Assembly: GCA_900617105.1 (NCBI GenBank)
Contig: UYFQ01000499.1
Span: 1-36,422 of the forward strand
DNA: 36,422 nucleotides
Source of the DNA: Hydrurus foetidus
Taxonomy: Eukaryota
Direction: 5' to 3'
The notes beneath the pieces are model-generated. The model ran no database searches. It saw only the letters and a list, made by a program, of their open reading frames with translations, and had not been told where the DNA came from. Positions 3,075 to 36,422 of this stretch are shown here, piece after piece (position 1 is the first letter of the stretch; each line of letters opens with the position of its first letter). The position numbers and the translations under genes were made by a program.

Positions 3075-3930
3075 ATGTCGAGCGGCTCTTCTAACACTGA
3101 TCCCACCTCGGGAATATTGCGAACTCCTGATGGCTTTCAAACAGCATCGGGTAGATTGCGTCAACAGCAATCACAGTCGAGTAATTCTTCGACAAATCAA
3201 CGCTCAGGTTCATCACCGATAGCAATTGATAATCGTCGTTCGCAGGGTTCATTACCTGACAATGTACGTCGCCCTCAGTCTTCGACTGTTCAATTACAAC
3301 AACCTTTGTTCGTATTGAAAGGGCCGCACATCTCTCCTGAAGAGGCTGTTCTGTTTAAGACACAGGCGATACGTGTCCCTGACATCGGATCGTTTACGCC
3401 AAGAACAAACGCGGGTCAGTTGCGTCAACAACGATCGTAGTCCAGAGTTATTTCTCTTCTATCGCATAACGCGCTTAATTGCTACTTATCGGGGATGTTT
3501 CCCAAGGGATATACTCCACCAAAGCTCTTCTTCATGAAGAATTCATCGTCGACATGCGCCTTCGCATTGAGCGCCATGCTTTCGACAAGAGCAATCGTCA
3601 AACCTTCTATTGCATTGCAAAAGGGTTTGTTCGAAGGTGTGATGTCACTCCGTACAGCTCTCAGCTGGAAGCTTTGAAGGCAGAACCCTTCTTACTAGAC
3701 CAGACTGTATGACTCCGTACCACGCGTGTTATCAGACCTTCCTGGCTTTATCCCATAACTCGAATCGGGGACTTTTTATTAAACTGTGTAGTCCACTTTT
3801 AATCCCCTAACGCACAAGGTGAAGGGGCGATTCGAACCAACGATCTGTTCGTTGCGGGTTGATCCCAGGCAGCTAACCACTTAAGCGATAGCTGGTTCGT
3901 GCTTTTCATGAAAATTGTAAGCCTTTCAAT
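3075..3930 (+). pseudogene. gag: gag remnant of element A (stops/frameshifts, cut by the Harbinger-group insertion)
   Basis: First ORF after the 5' UTR; LFVLKGPHISPEEAVLFKTQAIRVP aligns by eye with IFILRGDYITRQDAEEFYEQAQRLP in the equivalent ORF of element C. Confidence 0.7.
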
Positions 3931-4129
3931 AGAGTGTTTCCGCAAAAACGTTTTGGGCACTGGACACCACCGAAAAAAAAAGTTAGCCCAAAACTTTTCA
4001 AAAAAGCACTCTGAGAAATCGGCCACCGTCACTGAAGCCTCAGAGATTTTGAAATTTATTTTTGTCGAACGTGCACCTGCGCAACGAGGCTCATAGAGAG
4101 TCAGAAATCCAATCTTTTCGAGTCGGAAA

Positions 4130-4948: not shown

Positions 4949-6227
4949 TTAATGAAGCCACTCCTCAATACTTGGCGGAGTGCAACTAAAAAAATTTGAT
5001 GTTTTATTTTCATTCAAGCACACATAACAATTACGTAGTATCATCGCTGTAACAAAAGTTTCTCTAACTGGAGTTTTTAAAAGTTGTTGTTTATTGGAGT
5101 AATCAACGAAAGGGAACAGTGTTTTAATTTCACCATAATGCCACTCAACATGCTCCCTACAACTGCTCATTACTCTGTTCTCTAATCGCTCAATTTCAGT
5201 GATATCATCACCTTTGTATCTAGAAAGTAAACACGATATCCATGGGAAAATTGAGTCACCGTACATTTTGAACAAATCATCAGGATTAATACCATAGTCT
5301 GTCTGAACTCTCTCCAGCTTTGAATTAATATCACTATTTGCCAACCAAGTGAGGTCACTGTGTCTAGAAGATTCGCCACTTGAAGCAAAATAAAGTCATG
5401 CCGCAAGGAGATTCTACAGTACCATACTTCATCCCACAGTCAGCGAGCCACCCGTTGTAGAAGACCCTTTGCAACCACCCTGCTGGGTCTCTTCTCGCTG
5501 CATCAGGACCGTCCATCGCCGGTCCAGAACCAGGACGAGAGATAATCTGATTGCAGCAATCTGTTACCATCGCGATACGAAATTGATCTGGCACGAAATT
5601 AAGCTGACCGCCTGAAAGTGCTACAGCTTTTGATCGAATGGCCTCCGCGAACCTCCCAAAATGCGGCACCCAGAAATTCAAGTTGTCGTACAGTCGCCAT
5701 CCGTGCTTGCGTTCCATCCATGTTACGAAGTATGAAAAGACTTGAGATAGCCACGTGTGACCACGATGGAATATTCTCTCGAAATCTTGCAAGCGCGCGA
5801 CTGAGGTAATTCTGGTTAAGCCGACTAAAAAGAGCTCCTCTCCACTGCACGTACGCCTCGAAGGCATCACTATCTTTGCTGGAATATTCAGGGAATTATA
5901 TAATCTCACCAACTGCTCTGTGCTCCGAAATCGAAATGTGCTAGGTATCTCGATTGAAGAAAAGGACAAAATTGTGACTCGAGGGTGGATAACTCTATCA
6001 GGCTGCATCACCGCAACTTCCTCGGTTAGTCTGCTGTAAAATATCATCGATATGACGATCAACTCTTCCATTTCTGCTTTGGTGGGGTTGTCATCAACAG
6101 CAGCAAGAATAAGTATCAGCTGCTTGATTCGCTTCAAGTCCCTATTAGCAATCCGTTTCTCTTTGCATGTCATCCCGAGATATCTCCTGTGCAAAGAATA
6201 GGCTTTGATGGACTTTCTCTTCACCAT
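4949..6227 (-). pseudogene. Harbinger-type DDE transposase with one +1 frameshift
   Basis: Motifs VTDCC, FYNGW, RHSD, YGDSIF, REHVEWHYG; removing one base from the A run at 5387-5390 joins ORFs 5364-6227 and 4949-5344 (MTLF-ASSGESSRHSDLTWLANSDIN). Confidence 0.88.
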
Positions 6228-6639
6228 CGCTTTGACATTTGATTATCAGTGTCGTCAGCCGATAGTGGAAGATACTGACGTTCTAAGCTTGACAAATACT
6301 TCTTTGCCAACGAAAATTCGATTTCTCTCCGCGGAAACACAGATTCTCAAAAGTTTTGTGTAGAGGGGCGCGGTGCACAAAATTTTCTTGCGGAAACACT
6401 CTAATACCGTTATTGGGCATTGTAACATACTCTGCGTACATAATCGTACGGGAGTCAATTTTCGTGTCGGTGTACATATATCTCGAAAATGCACACCGGA
6501 TTATAAATATATATATTTATTTATTTTTTTTTCAAAAAAAATTAATTTTTTTTTTTTTCGAAGTGATATGCAAAATTAAAGTAATTGCATCACAATTGAA
6601 TCCAATGCTTTACATCTTTGCTATACTTCACTTATACCT

Positions 6640-9600
6640 TTGGTTGTGTGTAGTGGCTTAGATCGTACTGGCTATAGTAATAATACTGTAATCGATATAG
6701 GTATTAATTTCAAATCGATAAATAACGTATGCCATACCATATATTTGACTGTAAGGGTCAAACAATCGTCGCTCATAGACTTAATTATTGGCAGAGTCTC
6801 TTTAAATAAATACTCGTTTTTTAAATTAACTCCTTTCGCTCTTGGGATAAGTGAGGAACACGAACCGATTTCCTCGGCAAGTTCCGATTGCACAGCGTGC
6901 GACGAACTACCTGATGTCGAACCATTACTTTCGCAACGGTTCACAAAAATATTATCCAGTGATAAGATTAATAAAAATTTGATAAAAAATTCAAATATCT
7001 TACCTATTGAAGAACAGTCAGTTGTAACTCAACTTTTTTTCTACTTCTAATATCCTAAGGGACTTCGGACAACCTACAACCGAAGGGGAAAGACTGACTA
7101 TCTGTGGTCACTCATGTTGTTCGTCCGGGACAGGGTCCTGTCCGGCATTATTGGAATTAGCTACTCCAGAGGCCGGCTGTGAGAGGGGTCGGGCAGTTCA
7201 TGGGAGTATCGTTCACCCTGAACTGACTCGTGACGGTGATACACCTCCCGAAGATGGATTAGATTACATCCCTCCGACACCAGGGTTTCTTAACGACGAA
7301 ACGCATGACACTTTAGGCCACTCGCCAAGTGTTGTCATTATCAGTAACGATGAGATTGACAGTGAGAAAACCGATACTTTCGGACCTTTCCTCCAAGGGA
7401 CTAGCCCTGATTTACCGCCCGACAGTAACGGGTCAGACAAGTTTCTTGACGAAATAACTTTCGTTGGTATGGAAGACCAAATAATTGCAATGAAACTTCT
7501 CTGCTTAGAGTTTCGCGACTTGTTCAGCAATAAAATTGCAACTCTACCAGCTAAACTAGATCCGTTTAGACTGGATGTGAGGGAACAAGAATGGGAAATA
7601 TCCGCAAACCGGACCCCGGTCCGACCCCAATCATCTCGTAAAGAGATTGAAATAAAAAGCCTTAGACGAGATGCTTTCATTAGGTATCATCGAATCTTCG
7701 AGTGCAGTCTATTACAGTCACCCTGTAGTAGTACAAAAGACAGCTGATACGTATCGATTCTGCATCGATTACAGACTCTTAAATGCGTGCATGCAACCAG
7801 CTAGTTTTCCGCTACCGAATATTCGGGGTCTTTTTGAACGCATTGGCCGTCACCAAGCCGATATTTTCGGTGTAATGGACTTAACTGCCGGTTACCATCA
7901 AGCTCCGCTTTATGAACCACATCGCCATTTTACGGCATTCATATGCTATGCAGGCATATTCCATTTTACTAGACTCCCCTTTGGACCTAGGTGTGCTCCC
8001 TCTTACTTCCAAGAGCAGATGGCCACCAAAGTCCTTCGCGGTCTCATATATATGATATGCGAAATATATCTTGACGATATAATTATATATGGCCGGGGAT
8101 TTGCAGAGTTTCTTAGTAGACTGAGAGAGATATTTTTACGTTTACGTGAATTTCGCATTTTGCTTAAAGCAAAGAAATGCAAATATGGTTGTAAAAGCCT
8201 AGAGTATGTTGGTCGTACAATCTCAAAAGACGGATTATCCATGTCTGAGACAAAAATTGAGTCTATACTCAACTTTCCAAGACCACAGACTTTAACAGCA
8301 CTTCGCTCGTTACTGGGTCTTGCGAACTATTTTAGAGGATTTGTACCAAATCACTCTACTATAGTCGCACCTTTACAGAGATTAGTTGATTCTAAAGCTC
8401 ACAAAAAATCACCAATTATTTGGACACCTAGTGCTATACTAGCATTCCAACACGTAAGAGTGGCTATATCAAGATGCCCTCTAATGTATTTTCTTGATGA
8501 AAAGTCAACTATTAAGTTATACACTGACGCATCAGATTATGGAATCGGTGGTGTGTTAATTCAAGTTGTTAACAATGGAGACCTATCGCTTTCATTAGCA
8601 AGTCACTTTCTGCAACACAATTAAAATGGTCCACGATACAAAAAGAAGCTTATGCTATCTATTACTCGTGTCAACAACTTGATTCTTTAATTAGAGATCG
8701 AGAGTTTGAAATACATACCGATCACAAAAACATTACATATATGAAACAAACACCAACGTCAATGGTGTCACGGTGGTTTATAGCTTTACAAGAATTAAAT
8801 TTCAAAGTTATATTTGTGAAGGGCACACAAAATCAGCTAGCAGACGGTCTATCAAGACTTTGTCCCAACATAGCTAAGTTAGCTTTACCGTTCACACCGG
8901 TAGCTACTAGCAATAATGAAATAGTATTATCTGCACTGACAGTTATACCTGAACCTAATCCAGAACAACTTGAATGGATGGAACAATGTCACAACGCAAT
9001 AGTGGGACATGGTGGTTCTTCTAGAACTCTTACCAAACTTTTCAGTTTAGGTCATGCATGGAAGTATATGCGACAGCACGTACGTATGTTCATTGCATCT
9101 TGCCCATGCTGTCAAAAGATGAGCATGATAAAGGTACCGGTTGAAGTTCAACATTATGTGACTTCTTCTAACCGACCTTTTGACGTCGTGAATATCGATT
9201 TTATCGGGCCATACCCAGACGATTCATACGTTCTTGTTATTATTGACACATTTTCTAAATGGATTGAACTTTTCCATTGCAAAGATGCCACTGCTAAATC
9301 AGCATGTGAGGCACTCTTGCAACATTTTGGTCGCTACGGCGCTCCCAATATGATTAGATCTGACAAAGGTTCTCATTTCGCAAACGATTTGATAAAAGAG
9401 TTTCTTGTTTTAACAGGTACTCCACACAACCTTACATTATCTTATTCTAAACAAGAAAATGGGGTAGTTGAACGTGCTAACAGAGAAGTCAACAGACATC
9501 TTCGCGCATTAACTTTCGAAACTAATGATGTAAATAACTACAGATTAAGTCTTCCATTTGTACAAAGAATTATAAATAGTTCTATACACGAAACTACAGG

Positions 9601-10239
9601 CGTAGCACCTGCTAGTATGTTGTTCGGGAATCAAGTAAATCTTGATAGAGGTATTCTTATACCCAATCCGGTAATTCGAAACACTGAAAAGAGCTCAGCT
9701 CTTATATCTAATATGTTATACATACAAGATCAAGTAATGCTAAATGCAATTGCAAAAGTAACACTAGCAAAAGCAAGACATTTAGTGAAAAATGCCAAAC
9801 CATTGACTGTATTTCCAGTTGGTTCATATGTTTTAGCAAAGTATGCTGTGGGGCCACCCACTCGTTTACACACTAAATGGCAGGGACCATTTCAGGTCAT
9901 TTCGTATATCGATTCAGAATACACATTACTTAATTTAGTGAATAAATCTGAACGAATTACCCATGCAAGTAATCTGAAGCAGTTTATTTTTGATCCTTCA
10001 AGAACATCTGCTCCAGATATTGCTAGACGGGATTATATGGAATTCTTTGTTGAATCCATTGTAGAACATCGTGGAGACACAAAACGATTAAATTCGCTGT
10101 TTTTAAAGTAAAATGGCTCAATTACGATGATTCACATAATTCATGGGAACCATGGAATGCATTAAGAACATGCGACAAACTACACGATTATCTTCGTTCA
10201 AATCAAAAGCTCAAGAAATTGATGCCTAAAAACTTCTAA
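6640..10239 (+). pseudogene. pol: pol of element A: partial protease, RT, RNase H, integrase, chromodomain; frameshifted
   Basis: IDLIIGR (protease C-term), RFCIDYR, DLTAGYHQ, LPFG, YLDD, TDASDYGIG, H-X4-H...CPCC, DFIG/SDKG/ERAN, KWQGPF, then FFVESIVEHRG...KVKWLNYDDSHNSWEP; frame breaks near 7655, 8575 and 10100; stop at 10237-10239. Confidence 0.95.
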
Positions 10240-10251
10240 ACATTAATTTGT

Positions 10252-10356
10252 TATTATGATGTGGTATCTTTTGAAGATTTTTTAGCCTAATTTTTTGCCC
10301 TCTGGGTTTTTATGGTTTTTTAGTCAGTAAGAATCTGACATACCCACATCATAATA
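10252..10356 (+). promoter_or_regulatory. Conserved structured 3' UTR element (ENE-like multi-way junction) of element A
   Basis: 13-bp closing stem 10252-10264/10344-10356; internal motifs shared with element D at 36317-36413 on the minus strand. Confidence 0.65.
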
Positions 10357-10619
10357 TATGTTATTTTGTACATACATTAATTTGTATTGATTTACAAAAT
10401 AAACTTATTTCCACGACCACTCCCGACTCTCTTTAAATTTTGTTATTTTGTTAAATTTCGTTTTACTATTTTATATTGAAATCTTTTCTTTTTCTTGTAT
10501 ATTTCTGTAATCGAATTACTTTTCATGTAAATATGTTAGTATCATTTTTAAATTTTATCTTATTTTTAAAAAAAATATAGCTTAATTAGAGATAAGTGGG
10601 AGTAGGGTCATTCTCTGTG

Positions 10620-10636
10620 GAGATAAGTAGGAGTAG
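10620..10636 (+). promoter_or_regulatory. Polypurine tract of element A (GAGATAAGTAGGAGTAG)
   Basis: Abuts the 3' LTR; near-copy at 10589-10605; 16/17 identical to the PPT of element D. Confidence 0.9.
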
Positions 10637-10854
10637 TGTAGCCATATGCCATTTAGTATGGCATTATGAGCTTCTAGGACTATCGGTCTACAGATCGGTC
10701 TACAGGGTCGTAGGCTTCCAGCCTCACCCTTACAACGTGTACTCTGCTATCATCTAGCTAGTCCACGTAGAAGTTACCCTAGCTACGGCTTTCCCCTGTA
10801 ACTAAGACTTCAGCTCCTCTCCTTTCCTTTCTCTCTTTTGCCATTCGGACTACA
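10637..10854 (+). repeat. 3' LTR of element A
   Basis: Direct repeat of 2286-2503, followed by TSD CAAC. Confidence 0.97.
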
Positions 10855-11389: not shown

Positions 11390-12740
11390 ATCAATATTGA
11401 AAGAATGCTTCATTTAAAACCGTATATCATGGTTGGGGAAAGTTTGTTATTACCCACTGTGATAGTACCGGGCCCAAGGTCCCGATCCTACCGGGTACCG
11501 ACTATACCGGATCCTACTGGGTATCGACCTACCGGGTACTACTGCTGTCACTGCAGACTGTTGTCTCGTCGTAGCCATTTACAGCCACCACGTAGAAGTT
11601 AGCCTCCCTAGCTTCTAGCATAGCCGCCTGTAAACTAACCAAAGCCTACACTCTATTTCCTACCCTTCCTCGGATCACACTACTATCAATCTGACGAATG
11701 AGCAATGGGTGATTGTAGAAGGTGTTTGTGCTATTCTAGCATTGTTCAAGTTTGTCCAGAAGATAATGGAAGGAGAAAAGCATGTGACTGTCAGCCTAAT
11801 ACCAGGTAAAATACGTACTAAAATGCTTTACTGAAATTGTCACACGCTTGTTCCTAGGAACATTCTACTCCTCTTTATAACATTTTGCACTCTTCAGGCA
11901 TGATCAACCAAATCCGATTAGGCCTTGGAAGGGCGGACTCTGATGCCAATACAAGCGCTGCTGCAAGATTGGTTCTTAATAAGATTACCGAGAAATTTAA
12001 TGAGGAGTTTGGCACAGGTTGTGCTGGTACAGTTTTTTCGGACCATGAAAAAGGAGGATCATTTCGTAGGTTTAAAGGTTTTCAACTGAAGACAATGATC
12101 GCCACTGCATTGGACCCGAGGACAAAGATGCTTGTTGGTAACACACAAGAATGCAATATAAATTTATGTCAAAACATTATTTAAGATTAAATACATTTTT
12201 ATCACAGGCATACCATCAACGTCAATTAACCGTGAGCAAGTGTGGACGGCAATGAAGGATCTCATGATTGAGCTGTGGGTAATGAGACATAACGCCGGGG
12301 TCTGGAGTCCCGAAATTGCAAGAGCAAGAGCTTTACCAAGTGATGAGGACCCATAGGGAGAAGAAGAAGAAGAAGAAGAAGAGGAGGTTCCTGAACCTGG
12401 TCCTCCTCCATTGAATATGCATGAAGTTCAACGAGCAGTTACTGCAGAACTTAATGCGTAAAAATCTATACTGAGAATAGATATGAGAGAGACATTAGAA
12501 AATGGTGACAAAGGTAAATACATTGACCGATTAACCTGGAGGAAGGATCGCATGGAAAGCTCTCCAACGCTTTGCCAGATAGCAAGGAAAGTACTTCGCA
12601 TTCCTGCGACTTCTGCCCCATCTGAGAGAGTTTTTCTGTAGCAGGACTCACCATTTCGCAAATGTGTTCTAGACTAGACAGCGATAATGCTTCGTGTCTT
12701 ATATTTCTCAGAGACAACTGGGACCTTAGTTATCAAATGA
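11390..12740 (+). pseudogene. hAT transposase C-terminal remnant with introns
   Basis: IERMLHLK...LTNEQWVIV...MEGEKHVTVSLIP, ATALDPR, and dimerization motif LCQIARKVLRIPATSAPSERVFSVAG; GT-AG introns near 11806-11898 and 12139-12208; N-terminus missing. Confidence 0.9.
11458..11679 (+). mobile_element. Solo LTR B (chromovirus lineage related to A and C) inside the hAT transposase
   Basis: TGTGA...TCACA ends; shares CCAAGGTCCCGATCCTACCGG with LTR C and CCACGTAGAAGTT with LTRs A and C; flanks CCAC/CTAC; removing the LTR plus 4 bp restores the hAT frame LLPTINLTNEQW. Confidence 0.9.
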
Positions 12741-23350: not shown

Positions 23351-24211
23351 GCATTCAGATATCTTATGTCCATCATTTGATAGCCATCAGACGCGTCTTC
23401 TTTCACAGATGAAGTGGTTTTTCTCCAGTCACATTCGAAGTAAGTTTTCTCCGGTGCAGTGTACGTTCATCACTACAATATGTTCATGAAACCACCCTTG
23501 GAGAGGACATTTTATTCGGCACCCATTTACGGACATACTAAATCAATTGAAGATATACTTTAAAACTGAAAAAAACACTTAAAGGTGTGTAAAAATACTA
23601 AAACATGTAATGTTCTACTACAAGATTTGTATAGTCAAATGTGTGTAACTTCTACTATTTCAATAAAAGCTGTACTAAAAACAACGAAATGATACTATTT
23701 AGATAGACCATTGTACTAATACCTGTGAGTCCGTTGTTGGTCTACCAAACGATAGATATCATCCGAGTTTATTTCGTGTGCAGCCAATCAAGGCTACGTC
23801 AACAAATCAAGGCTTTTCTAACCCTATATCTACTGATAGCTGTAGCCATCTACTCATTTATTAACCCTAACCCTGACCGCCCCCGAGCCATTCTAATCCT
23901 AACTGAAACCAGAAGAAAAACGACATGACTTCTACGTGATAGCCCGAAGTTACTATTATGAAATTCCAAAAAAAAAGTAGAAATAAAAGTGCAGCATCAT
24001 GAATTCAGTATTGCGCACCAATTAAAGTACGACTTCCATGAAATAGTAGGTCGATCTTTACTTTAGGGTATAAAATCCATATTTTAGTACAGCTGTGTTT
24101 TGGTAAATTTTTCAAGATTTTGGTACAGAATCTATGTTATAGTATTTATTACCAGATTTTAGTATGCCCATATATTTGCCCGATTTTATTCTGCTGTCGT
24201 ACGGCTGGTTC

Positions 24212-24473
24212 TGTTGATAGCGCACGTACAACATAGTTAACACGCACCGTACGCAGCGTACACACCAGGGCGCACGTACAACACATGTAACACACATTGT
24301 ACGTAGCGTACATACACTACACATCGTACGCAACTATCATTTTCAAACACTGTCAATTGCAGCAACAGTTAGCCATGCGTATTGACTTCCATCCCGCATA
24401 ATTTAATTCCAACACCTGTGAAACACGTACATTCGTTTCACCTTTGGTGCGCAATTTAATCTGCGGATCAACA
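24212..24473 (+). repeat. 5' LTR of the young Copia
   Basis: Direct repeat of 29578-29839. Confidence 0.97.
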
Positions 24474-24484
24474 GTTGGAATTAA
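24474..24484 (+). promoter_or_regulatory. PBS-position 11-mer GTTGGAATTAA complementary to LTR 24403-24413
   Basis: Exact reverse complement of TTAATTCCAAC inside the LTR; abuts the LTR end. Confidence 0.75.
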
Positions 24485-24491
24485 CCTCATC

Positions 24492-25586
24492 ATGGCCACT
24501 TTTCCGGTGACTTTAATGGATCAACCTCGACAAAATTTTCGGTCATTTTATCGGGCAGCAGTCGCCTCCTATGGTGCTGCGTGCACCACAGTCCACCAGC
24601 ACGGCCTGCTTGGATTTATCTTAAATGATGCACAATGGGAACAACTTCCCGGAAATCTCGTTCCCAACGCCGATCCTGAACTACCAAACGAAGTCGTGCC
24701 TCGCCCTACCATCATTCTTCCCGTCACGCCGGCTGCCAACGCCACTGCCCTCACCATCAAAGTCTGGGAGAAGCGCCTCGCAGAAAATGTTCTAGTGACC
24801 GATAGCCTAAGATCTCTCAAAGCACAACTTATCGCCAGCGTCCAACCAGCTGATATCGTCATTCTACACGACCCATTTTTTGGTCTCCTCAATGTGCCGG
24901 CATTGACAATAATGATACACCTTACAGAACTCCACGGCACGTTGAACAGCACCGACTTCGCCCACCTTCGCTCTCAACTGTCACTCCCGATGACACCCCA
25001 CGCATCTCTCCAGGATTTTATCGGGACACACCAGTTACTTCACGATCAATTCTCAGAAGCTCAGCAACCCCTGTCCGAACTTGACAAGTGTCATCACTTT
25101 CGCGAAGCAGTTAAAACGCTTGCACACATCAATCATGCAATCGACTCCTACTTAGTCGCTCATCCCCTAGTGGGGGGACAAAACTTCAGAGCGCTCACCG
25201 CACACACGCTCCAATAAGCACCCAACTTCACTCCAACAGCTGCAGCGATGGGTTACGCAGCGACCATCACCCAAAATCACAGCACAATTCTCGACGTTGA
25301 CAACGTGTCCGCACTACTGCACACACCAGCATTCGCCGCTCTCATCACAGCCGCCGTAAAGGCGGCCACTCCGGTTAATCCTCGCGGCCAACGCACCCGC
25401 ACCCCGGCTGCGAAACGTCCCCCGGCTGCTGCCCCCCAAAAAGACAGACTGTATTGTTTCCACCACGGGTATGACAGTCATCGCGGTTCCGACTGTAGAC
25501 ACATGTTCACGAATGACTTCGCCGCTGATCAACGCGCCACTACAAATCACAATACTATATCCGGTGCGTCCACCGCTCGATTCTGA
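24492..25586 (+). CDS. gag: Copia gag with one internal in-frame TAA (25215-25217)
   Basis: ORFs 24492-25217 and 25218-25586 share a frame; C-terminal knuckle YCFHHGYDSHRGSDC (CHHC type). Confidence 0.85.
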
Positions 25587-28500
25587 CGGTTAGGGGCGGC
25601 GCAAGAGCTTTTCTGTTATCTTCCTGCACGGTGTAACTTAACTCAAACAACCTCTTCAGTCGTCCCCCCTTCCCTTTGTGCCGACACTGGATCCACGCAC
25701 ACGTTGCTCCGTGCATCAGATGCCCCATATATCAATAGCATCGAAACAAGTCTTCATGTGCTCCTCCCCAACGGCGCTACTATCTCATCTATCGGTGCTT
25801 GCAACCTCGATTTTCCAAACCTCCCGCACACTGTGCCGTGTCACATCTTTCCAAATGACGTTCTCAATACTTCCCTATTATCCATATCGCAACTTTGTAA
25901 AATGGGATGTGTCGCTACTTTCTCGGCCTCCGATGCCTCAATCACATTCAGCAACCGCCCCGTACTACGTGGCCTCAAATCGCCCGACGACAACCTATGG
26001 ACTCTACCTTTTCTAGCCTTCAACACTGCACTCCTTCCCACAGTACGTGCTGCGTACGCACTGTCATCAGATGCCTCGTTTGTAAAATTCACGCACGCTT
26101 CACTTGGTAGCCCCTCACTCACTACCTTGACGAAAGCTGTTCGTCGTGGCTATCTTCACTCGTACCCGCGACTCACATCACTCATGTTAAATGCTCATCC
26201 GCCAATTAGCATCGCCACAGCTCAGGGACATTTGGATCAACATCGCCAAGGTCAAAATTCAACTCAGATTCCTGTCACCATCTTTGACACAAACGACACC
26301 GATGAGGATCTCGTGCCAGCTGACGCTCCCACACAGCTCACCGCTTACACACGAGTTGTCCTTCTGTCCGATACTTTACATTCCGACCTCACCGGTCGGT
26401 TTCCGGTAACATCACACAATGGTGCTCAATACATATTTGTGTCAGTCTTAGACGGTTACATCCATGTTGAAACAATGAGAACAAGGCATCATACAGAGTA
26501 CGTTACAGCCTACAAAAAGACGCTAAACTTTTTCGCTCAGCGTGGCCGCCGGCCCGCCTTTCAACGCTTGGACAACGAGACATCCGGTCCTTTAGAAGCA
26601 TTCGCAACTGCCAACAACATCAGCATACAGTATTGCCCGCCGCACACACACCGCTCACTCAAAGCCGAACGAGCAATTCGCACTTTCAAAAACCACTTCA
26701 TAGCCACTCTGGGCACAGTAGCTTCAGAGTTCCCCATGACGCTTTGGGATGAACTGCTGCCGCAGGCCGAGCTTTGCCTGAATCATCTGCTGCCCTACAG
26801 TCCCAACCCCGCTGTATCAGCGTATGCTGGAATCCACGGCGGTGCGCTAGACTTCACTCGACATCCCATCGCTCCAGCCGGAACTCGTATCCTTATCCAC
26901 GACAAACCCACTGTTCGATCCTCCTGGGCACCGCATGGAGTCCCAGGATACTACCTCGGCCCCGCGCTGCAGCACTATCGGTCCTACCGGGTTTGGTCAT
27001 CCACTTCCAAAGCAACCCGCATCTCCGATACTTTAGCGTGGTTTCCTAGCGGGTTTACAGTCCCCGGACCAAGCCCACACGATAACCTTCTCGCCGCAGC
27101 TATAACGCTGAAGAAAACACTCACAGAATTTAATTCATTGCCTACACAATTTCGTACCAATTCGCAACCCGGAGTTTCCGTCATAGCATCCGTCATTACC
27201 GATTTGGCCGGGATCTTGGGTACAGACCCGGCCGGAACTGTGGGTACCGATCCGGATACCGTAAGTACACCCGCACCAACGCTAGCTCTCCCTGCGCCAA
27301 CGTATTACATCACACTCATAGCACCTTCAGTCGCTGCTATCCCTCTTCCTTTGCCGGACTCTCGCCAAGAACAGAGGGTGGTCCCCAATATAAGCACTAC
27401 CGATCTACCTCCTTTATCCCCTCCGTTTGCAGAACACGAAGTGCCTCAACCTCTTGTGTCCCCATCAGTCCAGATACCAGCCGGTCCACACCAACATCTG
27501 AACACTTCCACCCAATATGACTCTCCCAACATTCGCATCACAAGCCATCATCCACGACGACCATCGGTACCGCTCCCACCTCAGATCTACAGAAATGCTA
27601 CCCACCCACCTCAGTTCGCAGCTGCCCTTACCACGCTTAATCTTGACGACCACGGCCAACCGTTACGTTACTCAACCGCCAAAGCAGGGTCCAATGCACT
27701 ACTGTGGCAACAAGCCGAATCCGAAGAGCTCGACAGACTTCTTGCAACTGAAACGATTCGGCCCATTTTCCTGGCTCAGCAACCTATTGATCGCAGACGG
27801 GATACAACTTATTACAACCCTCAGACAAAAGAAAAGCAAAATGCTTCAGGTGAAAGAACATACCGCATCCGTGGCACCATCGGTGGCGATCGTATCCATT
27901 ATCCCGGCCCGACAACTGCTCGAACCGCTGCAATGCCCCTGGTAAAAATCCTTCTTCAATCAGTCATATCCGACGGAAGCAAATGGCTCACCATTGATAT
28001 CAAAGATTATTACCTAAACACGCCACTTCCTCGCCCTGAGTACCTGCGCATCGCGTCAAAATTTCTCCCGTCTACAGTAATTCATCAACACGACCTTCAG
28101 CAATTTTTTCATAATAATGCTATCCTCTTCCAAGTCAACAAAGGTATGTATGGGCTCCCCCAGGCAGGACTCCTCGCACAACAAAGACTCATCACTCACC
28201 TGGCATCCGAAGGCTATCATCAAACCGATACTATTTGTCTCTTTCGCCATGTGACTAATGGAACGGTGTTTTCGCTTGTCGTCGATGACTTTGGAGTCAA
28301 ATACACAAATATGGACGGCGTCAACCACTTAATTCAAACGCTCCAAGCCTTATACACCATCACCGTTGACTGGACAGGTTCCAAGTATCTCGGTTTCTCG
28401 ATTGACTTTGATCAACGTCATCGTACTGTTACGCTCAGCATGCCAGGTTATATTGCTAAAGTGCTTCAGCGCTTCGCGCCATTACTCAAAATTGGAGCCA

Positions 28501-29414
28501 ATTCTCCAGCTGTATACATCCCACCCAAGTATGGCGTCGGACAACAGACACCACACATCGACACCAGTACACGTCTATCACCCGCAGAAACTACTACATT
28601 ACAAGAGATTGTTGGCTCCCTTCTCTATTACGCCAGAGGTGTAGATGTAATCATATTGCCGGCGGTAACACACCTGTCGTCCCTACAAGCGCAACCTACA
28701 CAAGACGTTCTCCAGGCCGCGCAACGCCTCTTAGCTTACTGCTCACGCTATCCCAACAATGGTCTCCGATACTATGCATGCGATATGATCTTACATATTC
28801 AGTCGGACGCTTCCTATCTCTCTCGTCCCGGAGCTCGTTCTGTAGCTGGAGCTCTCTTTTACCTGGGAAATATTGGTCAACCCACACACATCAATGGTTC
28901 TGTACACGCACTCAGTTCTATCATACCTGCTGTCGTGGCCTCTGTCGCTGAAGCTGAATATGCAGCTCTCTTTCACGCTGGCCAAGAGGGAATTTGGCTC
29001 CGGCATATTCTCCAATCGCTCGGATATCCTCAACCGTCAACAACCATTCTGTGCGATAACAAATGCGCTGAGGGAATCGCATTAGACACCATAAAGCCAA
29101 AACGCACCAAAAGCATCGACATGCGTTTCCACTGGATTCGTGATAGAATTCGTCAAGGACAATACACAGTCACATGGCGCAAAGGAGCCGACAATCTTGC
29201 TGATTTTTTCACAAAACCTCTGCCTGTTCACTTACATCAAAAGCTTATGCCGCTGCTCGTTCACATTCCTCCTGCCCAGTACGCCACAAACACCACAAGC
29301 TCAGCATCTCGTGCACTCACTCATCGAAACAAAAAGGCTTCAACCACCGAAACTCCCCCTAATTATACTGATTTGAAGGACGAGTTGGTGGGATTCACCT
29401 ACAGTGCTTCGTAG
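25587..29414 (+). CDS. pol: Copia pol (protease, integrase, RT, RNase H), open and in frame with gag after TGA
   Basis: LCADTGSTHT, HSDLTG, RLDNE, AERAI, RGTIGGDR, IDIKDYYL, KGMYGLPQAG, VVDDFG, QSDASYL, EAEY, CDN, ADFFTK; no stops from 25587 to 29411. Confidence 0.96.
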   Translation, partial: RLGAAQELFCYLPARCNLTQTTSSVVPPSLCADTGSTHTLLRASDAPYINSIETSLHVLLPNGATISSIGACNLDFPNLPHTVPCHIFPNDVLNTSLLSISQLCKMGCVATFSASDASITFSNRPVLRGLKSPDDNLWTLPFLAFNTALLPTVRAAYALSSDASFVKFTHASLGSPSLTTLTKAVRRGYLHSYPRLTSLMLNAHPPISIATAQGHLDQHRQGQNSTQIPVTIFDTNDTDEDLVPADAPTQLTAYTRVVLLSDTLHSDLTGRFPVTSHNGAQYIFVSVLDGYIHVETMRTRHHTEYVTAYKKTLNFFAQRGRRPAFQRLDNETSGPLEAFATANNISIQYCPPHTHRSLKAERAIRTFKNHFIATLGTVASEFPMTLWDELLPQAELCLNHLLPYSPNPAVSAYAGIHGGALDFTRHPIAPAGTRILIHDKPTVRSSWAPHGVPGYYLGPALQHYRSYRVWSSTSKATRISDTLAWFPSGFTVPGPSPHDNLLAAAITLKKTLTEFNSLPTQFRTNSQPGVSVIASVITDLAGILGTDPAGTVGTDPDTVSTPAPTLALPAPTYYITLIAPSVAAIPLPLPDSRQEQRVVPNISTTDLPPLSPPFAEHEVPQPLVSPSVQIPAGPHQHLNTSTQYDSPNIRITSHHPRRPSVPLPPQIYRNATHPPQFAAALTTLNLDDHGQPLRYSTAKAGSNALLWQQAESEELDRLLATETIRPIFLAQQPIDRRRDTTYYNPQTKEKQNASGERTYRIRGTIGGDRIHYPGPTTARTAAMPLVKILLQSVISDGSKWLTIDIKDYYLNTPLPRPEYLRIASKFLPSTVIHQHDLQQFFHNNAILFQVNKGMYGLPQAGLLAQQRLITHLASEGYHQTDTICLFRHVTNGTVFSLVVDDFGVKYTNMDGVNHLIQTLQALYTITVDWTGSKYLGFSIDFDQRHRTVTLSMPGYIAKVLQRFAPLLKIGANSPAVYIPPKYGVGQQTPHIDTSTRLSPAETTTLQEIVGSLLYYARGVDVIILPAVTHLSSLQAQPTQDVLQAAQRLLAYCSRYPNNGLRYYACDMILHIQSDASYLSRPGARSVAGALFYLGNIGQPTHINGSVHALSSIIPAVVASVAEAEYAALFHAGQEGIWLRHILQSLGYPQPSTTILCDNKCAEGIALDTIKPKRTKSIDMRFHWIRDRIRQGQYTVTWRKGADNLADFFTKPLPVHLHQKLMPLLVHIPPAQYATNTTSSASRALTHRNKKASTTETPPNYTDLKDELVGFTYSAS

Positions 29415-29577
29415 ACCGACACCCATACCACCGCCGGCGAGCACCCTTTCGGGGATCGAACCGACGGCCATTCGATTATGATTGATCATCACTGACCTAT
29501 CACGTCACAACTCTGTCTTTTTGTCCTGAAAATACGAATACATATCTGTTCAAGCATGCACCATGTTTGAGAGGGTG

Positions 29578-29839
29578 TGTTGATAGCGCACGTACAACAT
29601 AGTTAACACGCACCGTACGCAGCGTACACACCAGGGCGCACGTACAACACATGTAACACACATTGTACGTAGCGTACATACACTACACATCGTACGCAAC
29701 TATCATTTTCAAACACTGTCAATTGCAGCAACAGTTAGCCATGCGTATTGACTTCCATCCCGCATAATTTAATTCCAACACCTGTGAAACACGTACATTC
29801 GTTTCACCTTTGGTGCGCAATTTAATCTGCGGATCAACA
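29578..29839 (+). repeat. 3' LTR of the young Copia
   Basis: Direct repeat of 24212-24473, followed by TSD GGTTC. Confidence 0.97.
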
Positions 29840-29940
29840 GGTTCTTATGTATGTTGGATATTGCGTGCATAGGGCTGATGTTAGTAGAGAGGTGTACTTA
29901 CGTACGTTACTTTCAGGCCTGAATGTAACGCACTACACTT

Positions 29941-30214: not shown

Positions 30215-33200
30215 TGTTGCGAACACTAAGCTTCGTGCACGGTGAACAGGGACGCCGTGCACAAGTTTTAATATCAAGTACTTGACTATCACATAGTTAT
30301 TTTACGAGCCTCAGAACGTTCCCGTAAGCTTCACAGCTACCTGAACCGTGGATTTCTGACATATTAAAACTAGAGGACAGCAAAGTGTTGCCGCCCAAAC
30401 GCGCAGCGGAAGCAAAAGATTCAACACCGGAATGCATGCTCTGCATAGGAAAATTCAACAACATCGTAGCGTGGAATCTCGAAATGAGCACTTCAGTGGG
30501 CGCCGTGTATGGACTCACTGCCAATTTCCTGCTGACGAACATCAGATATGTACCACCACTGCCTCGCAACGAGGATTTCACAGTAGTGTACCCGGTACCT
30601 GCGGAGGGGGAACGAGACGCTGTGGCGATCACCGCAGCACTTACTGCAAAACCCGCATGAAGTCAATCATACAAGCGAGGGAAGACGAGGCCAAAATCTG
30701 GTCTCTAATGTGGCACAAAATGTCACCCGCGTCGCGCTGCAAATTACAGGAACAAGCCGAATATACGGCAGCGCACGTCAGGAAGGACTGCGTCGTCCTG
30801 TGGGATCTCATCAGACGCACTCACCTAACACACATAAACGGCGAAGGAGATCACCTACAACTGCTCAATGTGAAAGAGCAGGAGTGCCGATACGAGGTCC
30901 TCAAGCAAGGTGAAAGAGAACATCTAGCTAACTTCATGACTAGATTTGAAGCGCAGGTCCTGGCTTGCAGAAGTGCCGGGGTACCAGAAAACGCGCGATG
31001 GACTTCGTATACAAGCTGGACAAGGCGAGATACGGCGGCATGGTGGGAGATATGCGCAACGCTGCCAACAGACTGGAACCAAACGCATACCCACCGACGG
31101 TCATCGCCGCTGTCCGAATTGCAACCGGATACGTGACGAATGACCCAGGGTTCTCACGGCCACCCGGTACAGATACCGATACCCACACTGCTCTGGTAAC
31201 AGACACAGACCCAACCGGCAAGGCCGACGACGTTAAACAAGCCAGGAAAGGAAAACCCGGCACGAAGAAGAAAGGCAAGTCCACTGTGGAATGCTTCGTG
31301 TGTGGCAAGATGGGCCACTACGCCAGGGACTCTGACATTTGGGCCGTCCGACAGCGACGATGGGGAAGAGGATCTCGAGGAAGAGGATGTGGCCTACGTT
31401 ACAACCTTAGAGAGGGTGCTGTTCACACGGGACGACGTACTCCTGGACAGTCAGGCGTCGGTGGACGTATTCTGCAACCGAGAATTGCTAAACAACGTGA
31501 GACAGTCAGAGACGAGAGTTGTGCTGAACGGGGTTCAAGCCAAAGCGTCTGGAGTTTCTATAGATCAATAAGGGGATATCCTAGACGTGGGGAAATGCTA
31601 TTTCAGCAAGGAGGCGACAGCGAATATTTTATCATACGCTGTAATGGTAGACGCAGGCAATGACGTGAGTTACGACAAGGTTAACGACCGATTCATACTC
31701 AAGCCGGCTGGGAGCCGGAGAGTGTACTCGTTCTGCAGGAAGAAAGTCAGTGGAAGCGAAGGAAGGTTTTACTGTTGTCATGTGAAGACAATGGTACAGG
31801 AAGAGCCTACGTCGTATCCGGAATCAACAGATCATGCGATGATAGAAATCGTTGAAACAATCTGATGAAATACACCAAGCGTGAGATCGCTGGTGCAGAC
31901 AGGGCGCGGCTGCTGCTGGCGAAGATGGGTTTCCCATCTGTGAGAAACGCGATCGACATTGCAACTTCGACGTGACAGCTAGGGATTTCTCTATAGCTGA
32001 GGATATCTATGGGAAGGATATTGCGACGATGAAGGGTAAAACAAAGAAGCGAGTGTCCATATGTGCAGACATAACTGTGGGTGCCGCTGTGGTGCAAGTG
32101 GAACAAGTTCTGTCAATAGACGTGATGTTTGTGGACGGCGTGCCGTCTCTAATAGGACTGGCAACGCCGCTGGACCTAACCATGGCGGTGACCCTGTCAG
32201 CATTCGACTCTGCTCAGGGCCCGAGGTCAGCGGCCGTCGTTAAGAAGGGAATAGACGGATTCGTTGCAACGCTCGCATCGAGAAACTTCATCACGAGGAT
32301 GATAATGAGTGACGGTGAGGATGCAGTGGGTAAGATCAAGGAGGATCTCAACATGCTGGGTATTGAAGTCGACATCTCTGGGGCAGGAGGTCATGTGGCG
32401 AGAATAGAACGGAAGATACAGACGGTAAAGGAACGGCTGCGAGCGTACATTGCTCACCAACTACCATTCACTCTAACATATCTGGGCGTGGCAATGTTAG
32501 TACTATTTTGCGTTTCTAGGTTGAACTATCAAGTTTCATCGGTCAGCGGGTAATGTTCTCCGGGAGACAGACGGACGGGAAGATGGATTTCAGAGCAGGA
32601 TTCGGGGAATACGCGCAATGCACCGTGCCGAACACCAACAACACCATGGAACCGAGGACTGAAGACTGCATCGTTATGCTGCCGACAGGAAACAGAACAG
32701 GATCGGTCAAGATGATGTCGATCAGTACCGGTAAGTTGATCACAAGAGATCAATTTAAAATACTACCGATGTCGTCTTATGTTATCACAAAGCTGAACGA
32801 GATGGCGATGGCGGAGGGAAAGAAACTACTCCGGAGATCCAAGTTGGTGTACGAAGTCGAAAGAGGGTTGCAAATGACTGAAGAACCCACGTACCTACGG
32901 CCGACCCAAGATCCTGCGGCCAACCTGGACCCTGTAGTCACAGCCAACCCCTACACCCAGCTAGATCTGGATGACGGCGAGAGAGAGGAGTACCAATTCG
33001 ACCCCGCGATGGTGAATGACATCATGGGATACCCTGAAGACTACGATGAGCCGATCGTGCAGGGTGGGGAACTCAATATGGAAGACTTGGATGTTAAGGA
33101 GCTCCAGGAGTTCGGACCGGGTACACCCGGAGTATACCATCATCCCGACGCGGCGGTACCGGTCACTCCACCAGGGAATACACAAACACCTATATACACG

Positions 33201-34737
33201 GCTGTGTCGACGGGATTTGACATGGGAGCGGGAGGAACCCTCGCACAAACATACGGTGACCACGACGTGGCGCTGTACGCTGATCGTACGTACCAGAGTG
33301 GAGGCGTGTCGGAGGAACGTGCGATGAACATCACGGTGAAAGAAGCACTTAAGAGTTGGGGTGACGAAGCTAAGAGGGTGATCAAGAAGGAATTGAAGCA
33401 AATGATCGACAAAAGAGTATGGACTCCGGTGCGCGTGTCGTCGTTGAGTACAGCTGAGAAGAAGAGCATCATCCGATCGCAGATGTTCCTTAAAGAGAAG
33501 TACCTCCCCACGGGGAAGTTCGAGAAGCTCAAAGCTAGACTGGTGGCTGGGGGCAACCAACAGGACAAGGATCTGTATGATGACATTTCCTCGCCTACAG
33601 TGTCGACTAGTGCGGTCATGACAGTAGTCGCAGTAGCGGCGTTTGAGAATTGGAAAGGCAGCGTGATGGACATCGGGGGTGCATTCCTAAATGCAACGAT
33701 GGGAAAGGTAACTGAGCATATGCGACTAGACCCGACAATGTCAGCCATGTTGGTTGAGCTAGACGGAACGTACGGCACGTACACGGACAGCAGAGGATGT
33801 ACGGTGGTACGGCTTGAGAAAGCCCTGTACGGGTGTGTGGAGTCCGCAGCACTGTGGTATAATAATCTATCTGCATCGTTCATGGATGCCGGTTATAAGA
33901 AGAACCAATACGAGATATGTGTATACAATAAGAGGAACGTGAATGGAGTGCAATGTACAGTGGCTGTACACGTTGACGACCTCATCATCACAAGTAAAAG
34001 CGAAGAGATGATCGCGGACCTAAAGGGATTCATAAAGAATAGGTATGGGGAAATAACGTCTGCAGACGGACCCGTGCTGAATTATCTTGGTATGGTATTT
34101 GATCTATCTATTCGAGGCCAAGTTAAAATGACTATGCAGGGATACGTCGAGGACACCGTAGCGTACAGCGGGATCGTTGGCCACTCCAGGAGCCCTGCCA
34201 CCAGTGGACTGTTCGACACCAGAGATGGTGCGGTACTGGCGTCAGAGACGCAGAGATCATGGTTCCATAGTGTGGTGGCCAAACTAGCGTATCTGGCGAA
34301 GCGTGTGAGACCTGAGTGCCTTACCGCTGTGGCGTTCCTTGCGACACGGGTGACGAAATGCACCGTCCACGACGTCGAGAAGCTGAAGTGGGTAGTACAA
34401 TACATCGCGTACACGAGGGAGCGAGGAGTGATCCTGAGACTGGAAAAATTGGGGGTGTGCGTACGGTTGTACGTGGACGCCGCATACGGGGTGCACGGTG
34501 ACGGCAAGTCGCACACAGGGAGCTGTGTCGTGATAGGAGACGTCGGAGCTGTCCACTGCAAATCATGCAAGCAGAGCATTGTGACCAAATCAAGCACAGA
34601 AGCGGACCTGATCGCGCTATCGGACTCGGCGGATCAAGGGCTGTACATCCGGAACTTCCTGCTGGCACAGGGGCACAGGGTACCGCCAGTTACGGTATAC
34701 CAGGATAACACGATGGAGAGAGGGAGATCTGGAGCAG
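30215..34737 (+). mobile_element. Second Copia lineage, decayed, interrupted in RNase H by element C
   Basis: Putative LTR from TGTTG at 30215 (possible end CAACA 30426; no second copy in the window); coding remnants 30385-34737. Confidence 0.9.
30385..34737 (+). pseudogene. gag-pol remnant of the second Copia with several frameshifts and stops
   Basis: CFVCGKMGHYARD knuckle, LLDSQAS protease, IDVMFVDG/SDGE/IERKI integrase, KARLVAGG/DIGGAFL/KALYG/VHVDD RT, YVDAAYG/SSTEAD/YQDN RNase H. Confidence 0.92.
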
Positions 34738-35877
34738 TGTGGTAGTTCCGGGTCCAAGGTCCCGATCCTACCGGATAGTACTACGGTACACTACTCACCG
34801 TACACTACAGTCTGTTGTATCGTCGTAGCCACTTACAGCCTCCACGTAGAAGTTCACCCTAGCTTCTAGCCTTTAGCTGTAACTAACTACCTCTCCCAGT
34901 CTTTCCCCTCTTCTTTGCCCATCCGAGTCATAATAGCGCTATTCCCACTCATCCTTCTTCGCTTCTTTCTCTACCTATCTACTTGTCCCAAACTTTTAGA
35001 TAGATTTCCAACGGAGTAGATTCACTCCACGACTTCCGAGGAGTCGTTTTCTCGTTGAGCCCGAAACTCCGAGAACTTAGTTTAAGTTTACAGGAGTTTG
35101 GCGTAGCCGCTTCCTGCTTGAAACCCTCCGAAAGGTGTCTTCAAAAGTTCGATTTTGGTCGAAGTCGCGAGAGGCTTCCCAACTCGAAATTAAGGAGTTC
35201 TCCACTAGCAATTTGGACACCGGTTCCACTGCTAGCGACATCAGATTAGTCTAAGGACGTCTTTTGGTCAACAGGAGTTTCTTCCTTCATCCTTAACAGG
35301 ACCTAACATTTGCAATCACCCAAAATTCGGCTTTCACGCCATAGAATTTTTCTCGACAAGAGTGGGTTGAAATTCTTTCATTCGCTGTTACTTGCGTAAA
35401 GTACCCGATACGCGAACGAGGCGAAGCTCTCGCAAAAATTTTTTGACGAGGAAAGCTCGTCCGCGCTTCGATACAACTCGATTTATATCGACTGCTCATC
35501 CTACGATAGGAGATGGAAGACGACGGTCTACATCCTGAGCCTGAGCCAAAGGAGCCAGACAACGAGCATGAGATTGATGAGGAAGGAAACATCCTTATCG
35601 TCTCACAAAGCTCACAATCGTCAAGCATGGGGTTTCCCCAGACGCTTCAGACCCAGCGTGAGATATTCATCCTACGGGGAGATTATATTACTCGGCAGGA
35701 TGCTGAAGAATTCTATGAGCAAGCACAACGCTTGCCTCACTTGCATATTAAACAATGCATGCAATGTCAAGCAATCGATTTGCTTCATGTTAAAATCTTA
35801 ACTGATCAGTCGACACTGGCAGTTATTACCAACGAGCAACGCCTTAATTGGCAAAACCTCCTTCCGATAGAGAGTGT
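34738..35877 (+). mobile_element. Chromovirus-lineage element C: 5' LTR (34738-34932), 5' UTR and start of gag
   Basis: LTR starts TGTGG and resembles LTR B; followed by palindrome AATAGCGCTATT (34932-34943); gag similar to that of A; breaks the Copia RNase H after ERGRSGA. Confidence 0.88.
35513..35877 (+). pseudogene. gag: gag N-terminus of element C, interrupted by element D
   Basis: Position after the 5' UTR and similarity to A gag; the ORF runs into the inverted LTR D at 35878. Confidence 0.75.
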
Positions 35878-36422
35878 TGTGACCTTGGAAGGCAAAAGAG
35901 AAGGGAAATCTAAAGGCTAAAAGGAGCTAGTTAGTTAGGGATGAAGGCAGAAGGTACGCTAGTAACTTCTGCAAAGCAGCACAAACTAGCTAGTGACTGA
36001 TAGTCGTGGCTGTGAACACGAAGGTACTAAGGTGGAAACAGCATCTAATCGGCTGAATGGGGTAGCAGACCCTGAGGGAGCCACACTACCCCTACTTATC
36101 TCTCGTTTTCTCATTTCTCTCTCCCTCTCCCTCTCTCTCTCTTGGTGAGTCTCTAGCTACAGTGTGTAACAAAACAAATATGACTCAAGCGTGAGAAAGA
36201 AAAATGCAGAAAAAGATAATAAAAATAAAAATAAAAATAAAATACAGAAATGAATGCGTACGATGTATTTGGTGACGGAGGCGAGGAGTGCCTAGATGTG
36301 TTGTAACAAAGTGTTCACCTACACATTTATGTCAGATTTTTACTGACTAAACCTCCTGAAAAGCAACGTAACGTTGTAAAATGAGGAGGAATCTTCAAAG
36401 ATAATGTGTAGGTCGTTCACAG
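35878..36422 (-). mobile_element. Chromovirus-lineage element D (minus strand): 3' LTR 35878-36085, PPT 36086-36102, 3' UTR to the window end
   Basis: Minus strand reads GAGATAAGTAGGGGTAG|TGTGG...CTTCTCTTTTGCC...TCACA, matching the PPT and U5 pattern of A; shares the 3' UTR motif of A. Confidence 0.88.

Follow-up and report, generated by a model that had tools for sequence, protein, structure and literature searches.

Introduction

Tycowski, Shu and Steitz reportedly described ENEs and double ENEs in transposable elements of plants and fungi in 2016. Reviews likewise list single and double ENEs for plant and fungal transposons (PMC13541005). In the copia element Evade (Copia93) the ENE lies between the ORF and the 3′ LTR; it binds A20 in vitro and shields the RNA against CCR4a, the G–C pairs directly beside its U-rich loop being essential (PMC12501189).

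The RNA of R2, a non-LTR element residing in 28S rDNA, ends right after its closing stem. To our knowledge, this RNA carries no poly(A) tail. Its 3′ UTR is recognised by the R2 protein to start target-primed reverse transcription (TPRT) (PMC12203849). In Bombyx R2, the protein holds two basal stems together with their linkers (PMC10499050), and TPRT in vitro persists when apical parts of the 3′ UTR are deleted; such parts can also be exchanged for tetraloops (PMC11194090; PMC10499050). Reverse transcriptases of LTR elements do not have NTE-1, the helix by which R2 RNA is bound (PMC10499050).

In this study, we analysed a stretch of 36,422 nucleotides from Hydrurus foetidus (contig UYFQ01000499.1), hereafter the window, which holds two copies, A and D, of a structured RNA in the 3′ UTRs of LTR retrotransposons. 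Our preferred reading, put forward tentatively, is that of an R2-like four-way junction, the core of which would dock a protein, while one arm of copies A and D would clamp poly(A) in the manner of an ENE. A full-text literature search returned no earlier account of this kind of junction for LTR elements; this search covered neither the 2016 ENE survey nor the R2 structure papers, so that a prior description is possible.

Results

Host elements of the two copies

Element A is a Ty3/gypsy chromovirus on the plus strand. Its LTRs (2286–2503 and 10637–10854) have TG...CA ends and are identical over 218 nt, with CAAC flanking on both sides. Pol, with reverse transcriptase, RNase H, integrase and chromodomain assigned by Pfam, spans 7671–10239 in at least three frames; the Chromo domain is matched at 10087–10239 (E 1.9e-08) and its frame is terminated by the TAA at 10237–10239. 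A polypurine tract (10620–10636) lies immediately 5′ of the 3′ LTR. This polypurine block is duplicated, with 10589–10607 being similar to 10620–10636, and an A8 run is located close upstream (10568–10575).

Despite the identical LTRs, pol of element A is split over the segments 7671–8624, 8741–10111 and 10087–10239 (region 7151–10239), which could reflect either frameshifts in a young copy or indel errors introduced by assembly. Inside the element, we additionally observed 50-nt inverted repeats (3930–3979 and 6354–6403, 74% complementary, 2.4 kb apart), accompanied by a minus-strand ORF at 5364–6227; a nested insertion may have made element A unusually long, with 8.1 kb between its LTRs. The sequence after the 5′ LTR (2504–2525, ATAGATCTATTCC...) is unlike the complement of a tRNA 3′ end, and the same is seen after the LTRs at two of the loci described below, L058 and L044. 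Tf1-like elements are self-priming, and the three elements may prime in this way. Upstream of element A, an array with a period of 10 nt (1348–1516, 12 overlapping copies, 60–74% alike) lies within a minus-strand ORF.

Element D runs on the minus strand. A polypurine tract (GAGAUAAGUAGGGGUAG, 36086–36102) is followed by an LTR starting at 36085 and running downward. The sequence-only reading had assigned both copies to chromoviruses, which stands for element A by virtue of its chromodomain; element D is a putative chromovirus, by its A-like polypurine tract and LTR start only, because its coding part lies beyond the end of the window.

The copia elements of the window have 3′ ends without the junction. 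One of them is a Ty1/copia element at 24207–29840, with LTRs at 24207–24474 and 29573–29840 that are 99% identical and an open ORF of 1236 aa; the 158 nt between its stop and the LTR contain no junction. A second copia-like ORF (RVT_2) is located at 32553–34854, and the about 120 nt that follow it recur at 11455–11600 with 88–90% identity.

Folding of copies A and D

Copies A (10252–10356, plus strand) and D (36413–36317, minus strand) each fold as a four-way junction, consisting of a closing stem P1, a hairpin Y (AUCU...AGAU), a variable arm M with U-tracts on both strands and a hairpin X (GUCAG-UAARAAU-CUGAC). The letter strings quoted for both copies in the earlier reading were all recovered where it had placed them.

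In copy A, the 5′ strand of P1 (10252–10264) forms 13 bp with the 3′ strand (10344–10356), in agreement with sequence, fold and the covariation of the equivalent stem. Hairpin Y (AUCUUUUGAAGAU, 10266–10278) is assigned from sequence and fold, its AUCU/AGAU stem being kept in relatives. Arm M (10284–10317) reads AGCC / UAAUUUUUU / GCCC-UCU-GGGU / UUUUAU / GGUU, with a lower stem AGCC/GGUU, a U-rich internal loop in which U6 is opposite U5, and an upper stem GCCC/GGGU. It is followed by hairpin X (A-GUCAG-UAAGAAU-CUGAC, 10322–10339), for which sequence, fold and a shuffle control agree, and by the linker AUA (10340–10342).

Copy D, assigned on the minus strand from sequence and fold, has a P1 of 11 bp (36413–36403 with 36327–36317), hairpin Y at 36402–36391, arm M at 36389–36352 (CCUCCU / CAUUUUA / CAACG-UUA-CGUUG / CUUUUC / AGGAGG, U4 opposite U4), hairpin X at 36348–36331 and the linker AUA at 36330–36328. 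Its closing stem is dissimilar in sequence to that of copy A and follows the same plan, and the middle arms of the two copies differ, yet both are helices with facing U-tracts; on both points the sequence-only reading was borne out. Outside Y, X and the polypurine tract, the 3′ UTRs of A and D are dissimilar.

The fold of copy A has an energy of −29.0 kcal/mol (z −3.88) and that of copy D of −34.3 kcal/mol (z −4.57), and for either copy none of 200 shuffles was equally good. The 24-nt X block occurs in the window twice, in A and D only, with 0 occurrences expected from 100 shuffles. An alternative pairing of AGAUU on the 3′ side of Y with AAUCU of X is possible on paper, but was favoured in none of the folds.

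Recurrence in two circular permutations

We searched viral, genome and metagenome contig collections with a pattern for the 20-nt X hairpin in which loop position 4 was left free. The viral contigs gave no X match. Three matches were obtained in genome contigs; one of these, L001, has X, Y and two more stems, and the other two (L002, L003) were discarded as junctions, being unrelated bacterial sites. Metagenome contigs gave 58 matches in 57 loci, with a rightly placed Y hairpin (AUCU-loop-AGAU) in 51 loci, comprising 52 copies. Loci with the X pattern but without Y (L015, L031, L033, L039, L043 and L049) were excluded from all counts. With the exception of L015, these show the 20-nt X hairpin in another conserved setting, which in L043 lies near a gene with a PIR2-like helical domain. 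We thus arrive at 55 copies, namely 52 from metagenomes, L001, A and D, so that 53 are known beyond the two copies of the window.

Sorted by eye, the 55 copies fall into 23 families with unrelated arm sequences and two arrangements of parts. In type 1, found in 8 of the 23 families including those of A and D, the order is P1(5′)–Y–M (capped)–X–P1(3′), and in type 2, found in the other 15, it is M(5′)–X–short capped stem–Y–M(3′). Both types have the same cyclic order of arms and the same linkers, differing only in which arm is open, P1 in type 1 and M in type 2. The linkers of both types measure 0–1 nt between P1 and Y and 1–5 nt, mostly U, between Y and M, and read UUU(U)A between M and X and AUA between X and P1. 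A covariance model, R1, was built on the type-2 form and run over the 196,639 bases of analysed sequence, where it found no copy other than the carriers of the X pattern.

Circular permutation is typical of hammerhead (types I–III) and twister ribozymes. The junction resembles these in architecture only, having a constant core and variable arms of which any may possibly be open; unlike the permuted small ribozymes, it contains no catalytic core strings, and cleavage at this position would harm an LTR element. Rfam searches gave no match to hammerhead, twister, twister-sister, hatchet, pistol or HDV-like ribozymes. There is also a likeness to the tRNA cloverleaf in the succession of closing stem, short arm, long arm, linker of 4–5 nt and 5-bp arm with a G–C-closed 7-nt loop, and to the tRNA T-loop in U at position 1, purine at position 4 and A at position 5 of the X loop. 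Differences from tRNA are the 3-nt AUA linker between X and P1, AA at loop positions 2–3 and a permuted form that has no acceptor ends.

Constant core and covarying stems

In an alignment of 18 type-1 sequences (A1), each of the 13 P1 pairs shows changes in both partners, and pairing is nearly always kept in the inner seven; one inner pair occurs as GC 9, AU 6, UA 2 and GU 1 times with none unpaired, another as GC 10, AU 7 and UA 1 times. The covariation score of 0.398 compares with 0.146 for shuffled alignments, of which 0/500 scored as high, and with at most 0.146 when the partner strand is slid. In the 24 type-2 sequences (A2), the capped stem that takes the place of P1 changes on both sides in 5/5 pairs, with 87.5% of the cells paired and a score of 0.314 versus 0.110 for shuffles (0/500). 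A covarying closing stem, as proposed from copies A and D, is thereby confirmed for P1 and for its capped equivalent, both scoring far above their shuffled controls.

The letters of the Y stem are near-constant, with a compensatory change in L037 (ACCU/AGGU) and G·U pairs in L034 and L052. The inner stem of arm M differs in sequence among families and reaches at least 5 bp in 83% of true partners versus 40% of 506 mismatched pairs, a modest signal only. Mismatched partners perform only moderately worse because this stem is strand-biased, being pyrimidine-rich after Y (CCUCCU, CACCAG, CCGCC...) and purine-rich before X (AGGAGG, CUGGUG, GGCGG...). The purine strand of the stem resembles the G-rich end of polypurine tracts. 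A strand test on G·U versus A·C gave 17 versus 10, which is weak.

The constancy of X is in part due to ascertainment, since X served as the search pattern. At loop position 4, which the pattern left free, G is found in 29 and A in 26 of the 55 copies, and never C or U. When contigs of three public runs were aligned at 80% likeness, no difference above 10% occurred inside X or Y, and differences and indels were confined to 10282–10308. In these contigs, the depth over 10256–10359 amounts to 3–10 times that of the flanks, and similarity between families ends at 10265 and 10341.

Location behind pol in gypsy and copia elements

At gypsy loci, ORFs with Pfam matches to RVT_1, rve or Chromo end 43–147 nt before X. 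The preceding ORF contains RVT_1, RNase H, integrase and often Chromo in L005, L006, L011, L021, L023, L024, L029, L044, L045, L048, L050, L055 and L058. An RVT_2 ORF of Ty1/copia type precedes the junction in L004, L010, L017, L025, L035, L056 and L060, ending 12–25 nt before X where it is intact. By blastx, L028, L053, L030 and L019 could be added to the copia loci and L007, L012, L018 and L051 to the gypsy loci. Type 1 occurs with gypsy only, type 2 with both gypsy and copia. The junction thus extends beyond the chromoviruses named in the earlier reading, being also present in copia elements and in circularly permuted form.

In most families with intact pol, the junction begins 0–15 nt after the pol stop, and P1 of type 1 sometimes overlaps the stop; exceptions are the L011 family at about 70 nt and the L028/L053 group at about 550 nt. 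Where the downstream sequence was read, purine runs followed by TG..., that is a polypurine tract and the start of an LTR, appear within 50–250 nt, and in several type-1 families the tracts begin with an A-run and lie 50–110 nt downstream. A strict regular expression for polypurine tracts proved too narrow to be of use, capturing only 11 of 48. Some contigs pass from pol through a short LTR and on into another long ORF, which is the form that a repeated LTR element takes in the hands of an assembler.

The U-rich arm and its likeness to ENEs

We scored an arm as U-rich if each strand had a run of at least four U in the 12 nt following the inner M stem, which comprises 3–9 bp, mostly 5–6 bp. By script, 9 of the 23 families have such a two-sided loop (A, D, L005, L006/L018, L007, L019, L044, L038/L045, L055); by eye, the L011 family, whose 3′ tract is displaced by an inserted hairpin, and L023, for reasons of register, bring the number to 11. 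In 12-mers drawn at random from these loci, such a run occurs with a frequency of 0.044, corresponding to about 0.002 for both strands per family. The U-rich loop lies 3–8 bp from the junction, and the stems flanking the tracts are unrelated in sequence from family to family, with the design of the arm recurring. In type 2, the U-tracts are about 75 nt apart and joined by an outer stem (L023, L019, L007, L005), and in the copia families L004, L009 and L020 the two U-tracts flank a hairpin immediately 3′ of the junction instead. Under the strict rule, 14 of the 23 families lack a two-sided loop, and their core is unchanged; at least nine families retain the core with no loop of this kind. Since many families keep the core without the loop, the core does not depend on it and constitutes a module of its own.

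This arm resembles the ENEs of transposable elements (Evade/Copia93 and the single and double ENEs of plants and fungi) and of KSHV PAN in its succession of stem, facing U-tracts and stem-loop, in which the stems vary and the U-tracts stay, and as in Evade it is located between the last ORF and the 3′ LTR. Unlike in ENEs, the U-rich loop is one arm of a four-way junction of constant sequence, is absent in many members and, in the permuted form, may be split over two distant strands. Its U-tracts comprise 4–7 nt, and the adjoining pairs are not always G–C: in A they are C–G below and G·U above the loop, in D U–A below and C–G above, and in L038, L045, L055 and L011 both are G–C, as judged by eye. 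Rfam searches with the junction sequences gave no match to an ENE-type model. Of the ENE-like stability element that had been proposed for A and D, the facing U-tracts and the position between pol stop and 3′ LTR remain, and the absence of the loop from 14 of the 23 families speaks against it as a general description. X and Y, which had been considered extra conserved hairpins accessory to an ENE, are the constant core of the junction and present also without the U-rich loop.

Comparison with the R2 RNA element

In Rfam, no family reached threshold in the window, and nothing relevant was returned for copies A and D at E up to 10. The only family matching the junction, in its permuted copies, is the R2 RNA element RF00524, which represents the 3′ UTR of Drosophila-type R2 retrotransposons, with 32.1 bits for L028, 29.9 for L013, 28.8 for L059 and 28.0 for L001. 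These 4 loci of 3 families all score below the gathering score of 38 bits, with E between 0.001 and 0.07 depending on search size. RF00524 was unmatched in 8 of the 12 type-2 loci of one search and in 9 of the 10 of another, and gave no match for the window copies. Type-1 copies cannot be aligned to the model, because they are circularly permuted. The comparison with Rfam suggested at the outset thus left both window copies unassigned, with no ENE-type match, and yielded the sub-threshold R2 matches on permuted copies.

In the RF00524 alignments, UUUUAG, GUA, AAUC, CAU and AUCUUUnGAAGAUUU, with every upper-case core position and all three helices of the 3′ domain of the model, are in register; copies A and D contain the same core parts in permuted order. 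Type 2 thereby agrees with the R2 element in order and letters, proceeding from closing stems to UUUUA, a 5-bp stem with UARG...AAU inside, AU, a hairpin, AUCUUUnGAAGAUUU and the closing stems again, and both reside in the 3′ UTR of a retroelement. In contrast to the junction, the model has an insert of 32 positions in the X loop and leaves Y unpaired. The hosts of the junction are copia and gypsy LTR elements, with polypurine tract and LTR downstream, and the window copies represent the other circular permutation and contain a U-rich loop that is absent from the Rfam R2 consensus. No rRNA match was found at junction loci in the Rfam searches, and the ORFs upstream are gypsy or copia pol. We regard the RF00524 match as a genuine similarity in core and architecture that does not amount to family membership. 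From the layout of the Rfam consensus, the equivalent of the junction would sit in an apical part of the R2 3′-terminal domain.

Discussion

The constancy of X, Y and the linkers as opposed to variable and interchangeable arms suggests either that a partner recognises the core or that the core adopts a specific tertiary fold. The occurrence of the junction in copia and gypsy elements and in R2-like RNA points to a partner common to them or to transfer of the module between them, and the U-rich arm, by analogy with ENEs, speaks for a poly(A) clamp that would have been added in polyadenylated elements. In the mechanism we tentatively prefer, the full-length retrotransposon RNA would fold into the junction in the cell, and after polyadenylation in the 3′ LTR the tail would enter the U-rich loop of arm M and form a U·A–U triple helix, which by analogy with Evade would slow deadenylation. 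The constant core would be recognised by a trans factor, either the reverse transcriptase of the element, as suggested by R2, or a host protein. As the junction lies 0–15 nt from the stop in most families with intact pol, binding of freshly made Pol in cis is conceivable, if speculative. The clamp has to be weighed against the U-tracts of copy D, which are only 4 nt long, and against 3′ UTRs that are U-rich anyway; further points against the preferred reading are that the R2 relative has no U-rich loop in the Rfam consensus and that the RF00524 scores stay below the gathering score.

If the protein partner is taken to be the whole explanation, the core could, in analogy to the R2 3′ UTR, be a docking tag for the reverse transcriptase or Pol of the element itself, serving to assemble the RNP in cis or to support reverse transcription close to the 3′ end, with the U-rich loops being secondary, for instance a U-box-like counterpart to the A-run in the polypurine tract. 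The alignment to RF00524, core for core, is in favour of such a tag, as is the recognition of the R2 3′ UTR by R2 protein (PMC12203849; PMC10499050), and the short distance from the pol stop in most families with intact ORF, the constant core in families without U-rich loop and the A-run-initial polypurine tracts 50–110 nt downstream in several type-1 families are in agreement with it. We nevertheless regard it as rather unlikely, since the polymerases of copia, gypsy and R2 are very different and those of LTR type lack NTE-1, LTR elements prime at the 5′ PBS and not in the 3′ UTR, and R2Bm protein binds two basal stems and their linkers with the apical parts dispensable in vitro; the RF00524 scores, in addition, remain under the Rfam threshold.

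A related account, which we consider unlikely, replaces the polymerase by a conserved host factor that handles unspliced retroelement RNA in export, translation or localisation, by analogy with constitutive transport elements. Those of simple retroviruses are positioned between the last ORF and the 3′ LTR. A module traded between retroelement classes would be understandable here, because the host partner is shared, and the same 20-nt hairpin and Y stem are indeed found in copia and gypsy and in close form in the R2 model. Arms P1 and M, which vary freely and even swap which of them is open, fit recognition of the core alone. Against this account, no known export or translation element was matched in Rfam, and no host transcript with the motif was seen.

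The constancy of the core would also be expected from a self-contained tertiary fold, in which the A-rich, T-loop-compatible X loop (UAARAAU) docks on the U-rich loop or on the G–C-rich inner stem of arm M, so that the U-tracts serve folding and not poly(A) binding. With 5 bp in the X stem and mostly 3–6 bp in the inner M stem, the X loop and the M internal loop can sit side by side; loop position 4 is always a purine, and U1 and A5 fit the closing pair of a T-loop (PMC6158498). In one family, the facing tract reads UUUCA where X is the G variant (L038/L058) and UUUUU where it is the A variant (L045/L047), but this co-change is a single event and is contradicted by L057 of another family, an A variant with UUCUU. 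Five A–U pairs would moreover be weak, and we judge such a fold to be very unlikely. Most improbable of all is a self-cleaving ribozyme or tRNA-like substrate, for which two circular permutations around a constant core, the cloverleaf-like arm order P1–Y–M–X and the T-arm-like X (a 5-bp stem closed by G–C, with a 7-nt loop) could be cited, given that no Rfam ribozyme or tRNA was matched at E up to 10 (up to 1 in one search), ARAGORN found 0 genes in the window and in 14 loci, the hammerhead core strings CUGANGA and GAAA are absent from the junction by reading, a cut at this position would sever the 3′ R region needed by the element, and the permuted form offers no free acceptor-like end.

Returning to the R2-like junction with a protein-docking core and a poly(A)-clamping arm, a wider and more doubtful proposition would be that of a portable, permutable junction which has moved among R2 non-LTR elements, Ty1/copia elements and Ty3/gypsy chromoviruses by docking one conserved partner, be it a surface of the polymerase or a host factor, and which in polyadenylated LTR elements has been fused with a poly(A)-clamping arm.

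Conclusions

LTR and non-LTR retrotransposons are commonly viewed as sharing a polymerase, not RNA signals. If the reading as a portable module is true, the junction would define a class of cis-acting retroelement RNA not described before, and no other function-bearing RNA module common to LTR and non-LTR elements would have been known until now. As a compact RNA of about 75–105 nt, the arms of which can be exchanged or opened, it is well suited to probing, structure work and pull-downs. Docking of the reverse transcriptase by the core, if it takes place, would bear on template choice, which is relevant to R2-based gene insertion. If the U-rich arm clamps poly(A), ENE-type stabilisers would be extended to a new scaffold and to new hosts among freshwater and soil eukaryotes, and a core common to elements of copia, gypsy and R2 type would, if true, amount to a shared handle on retroelement RNA.
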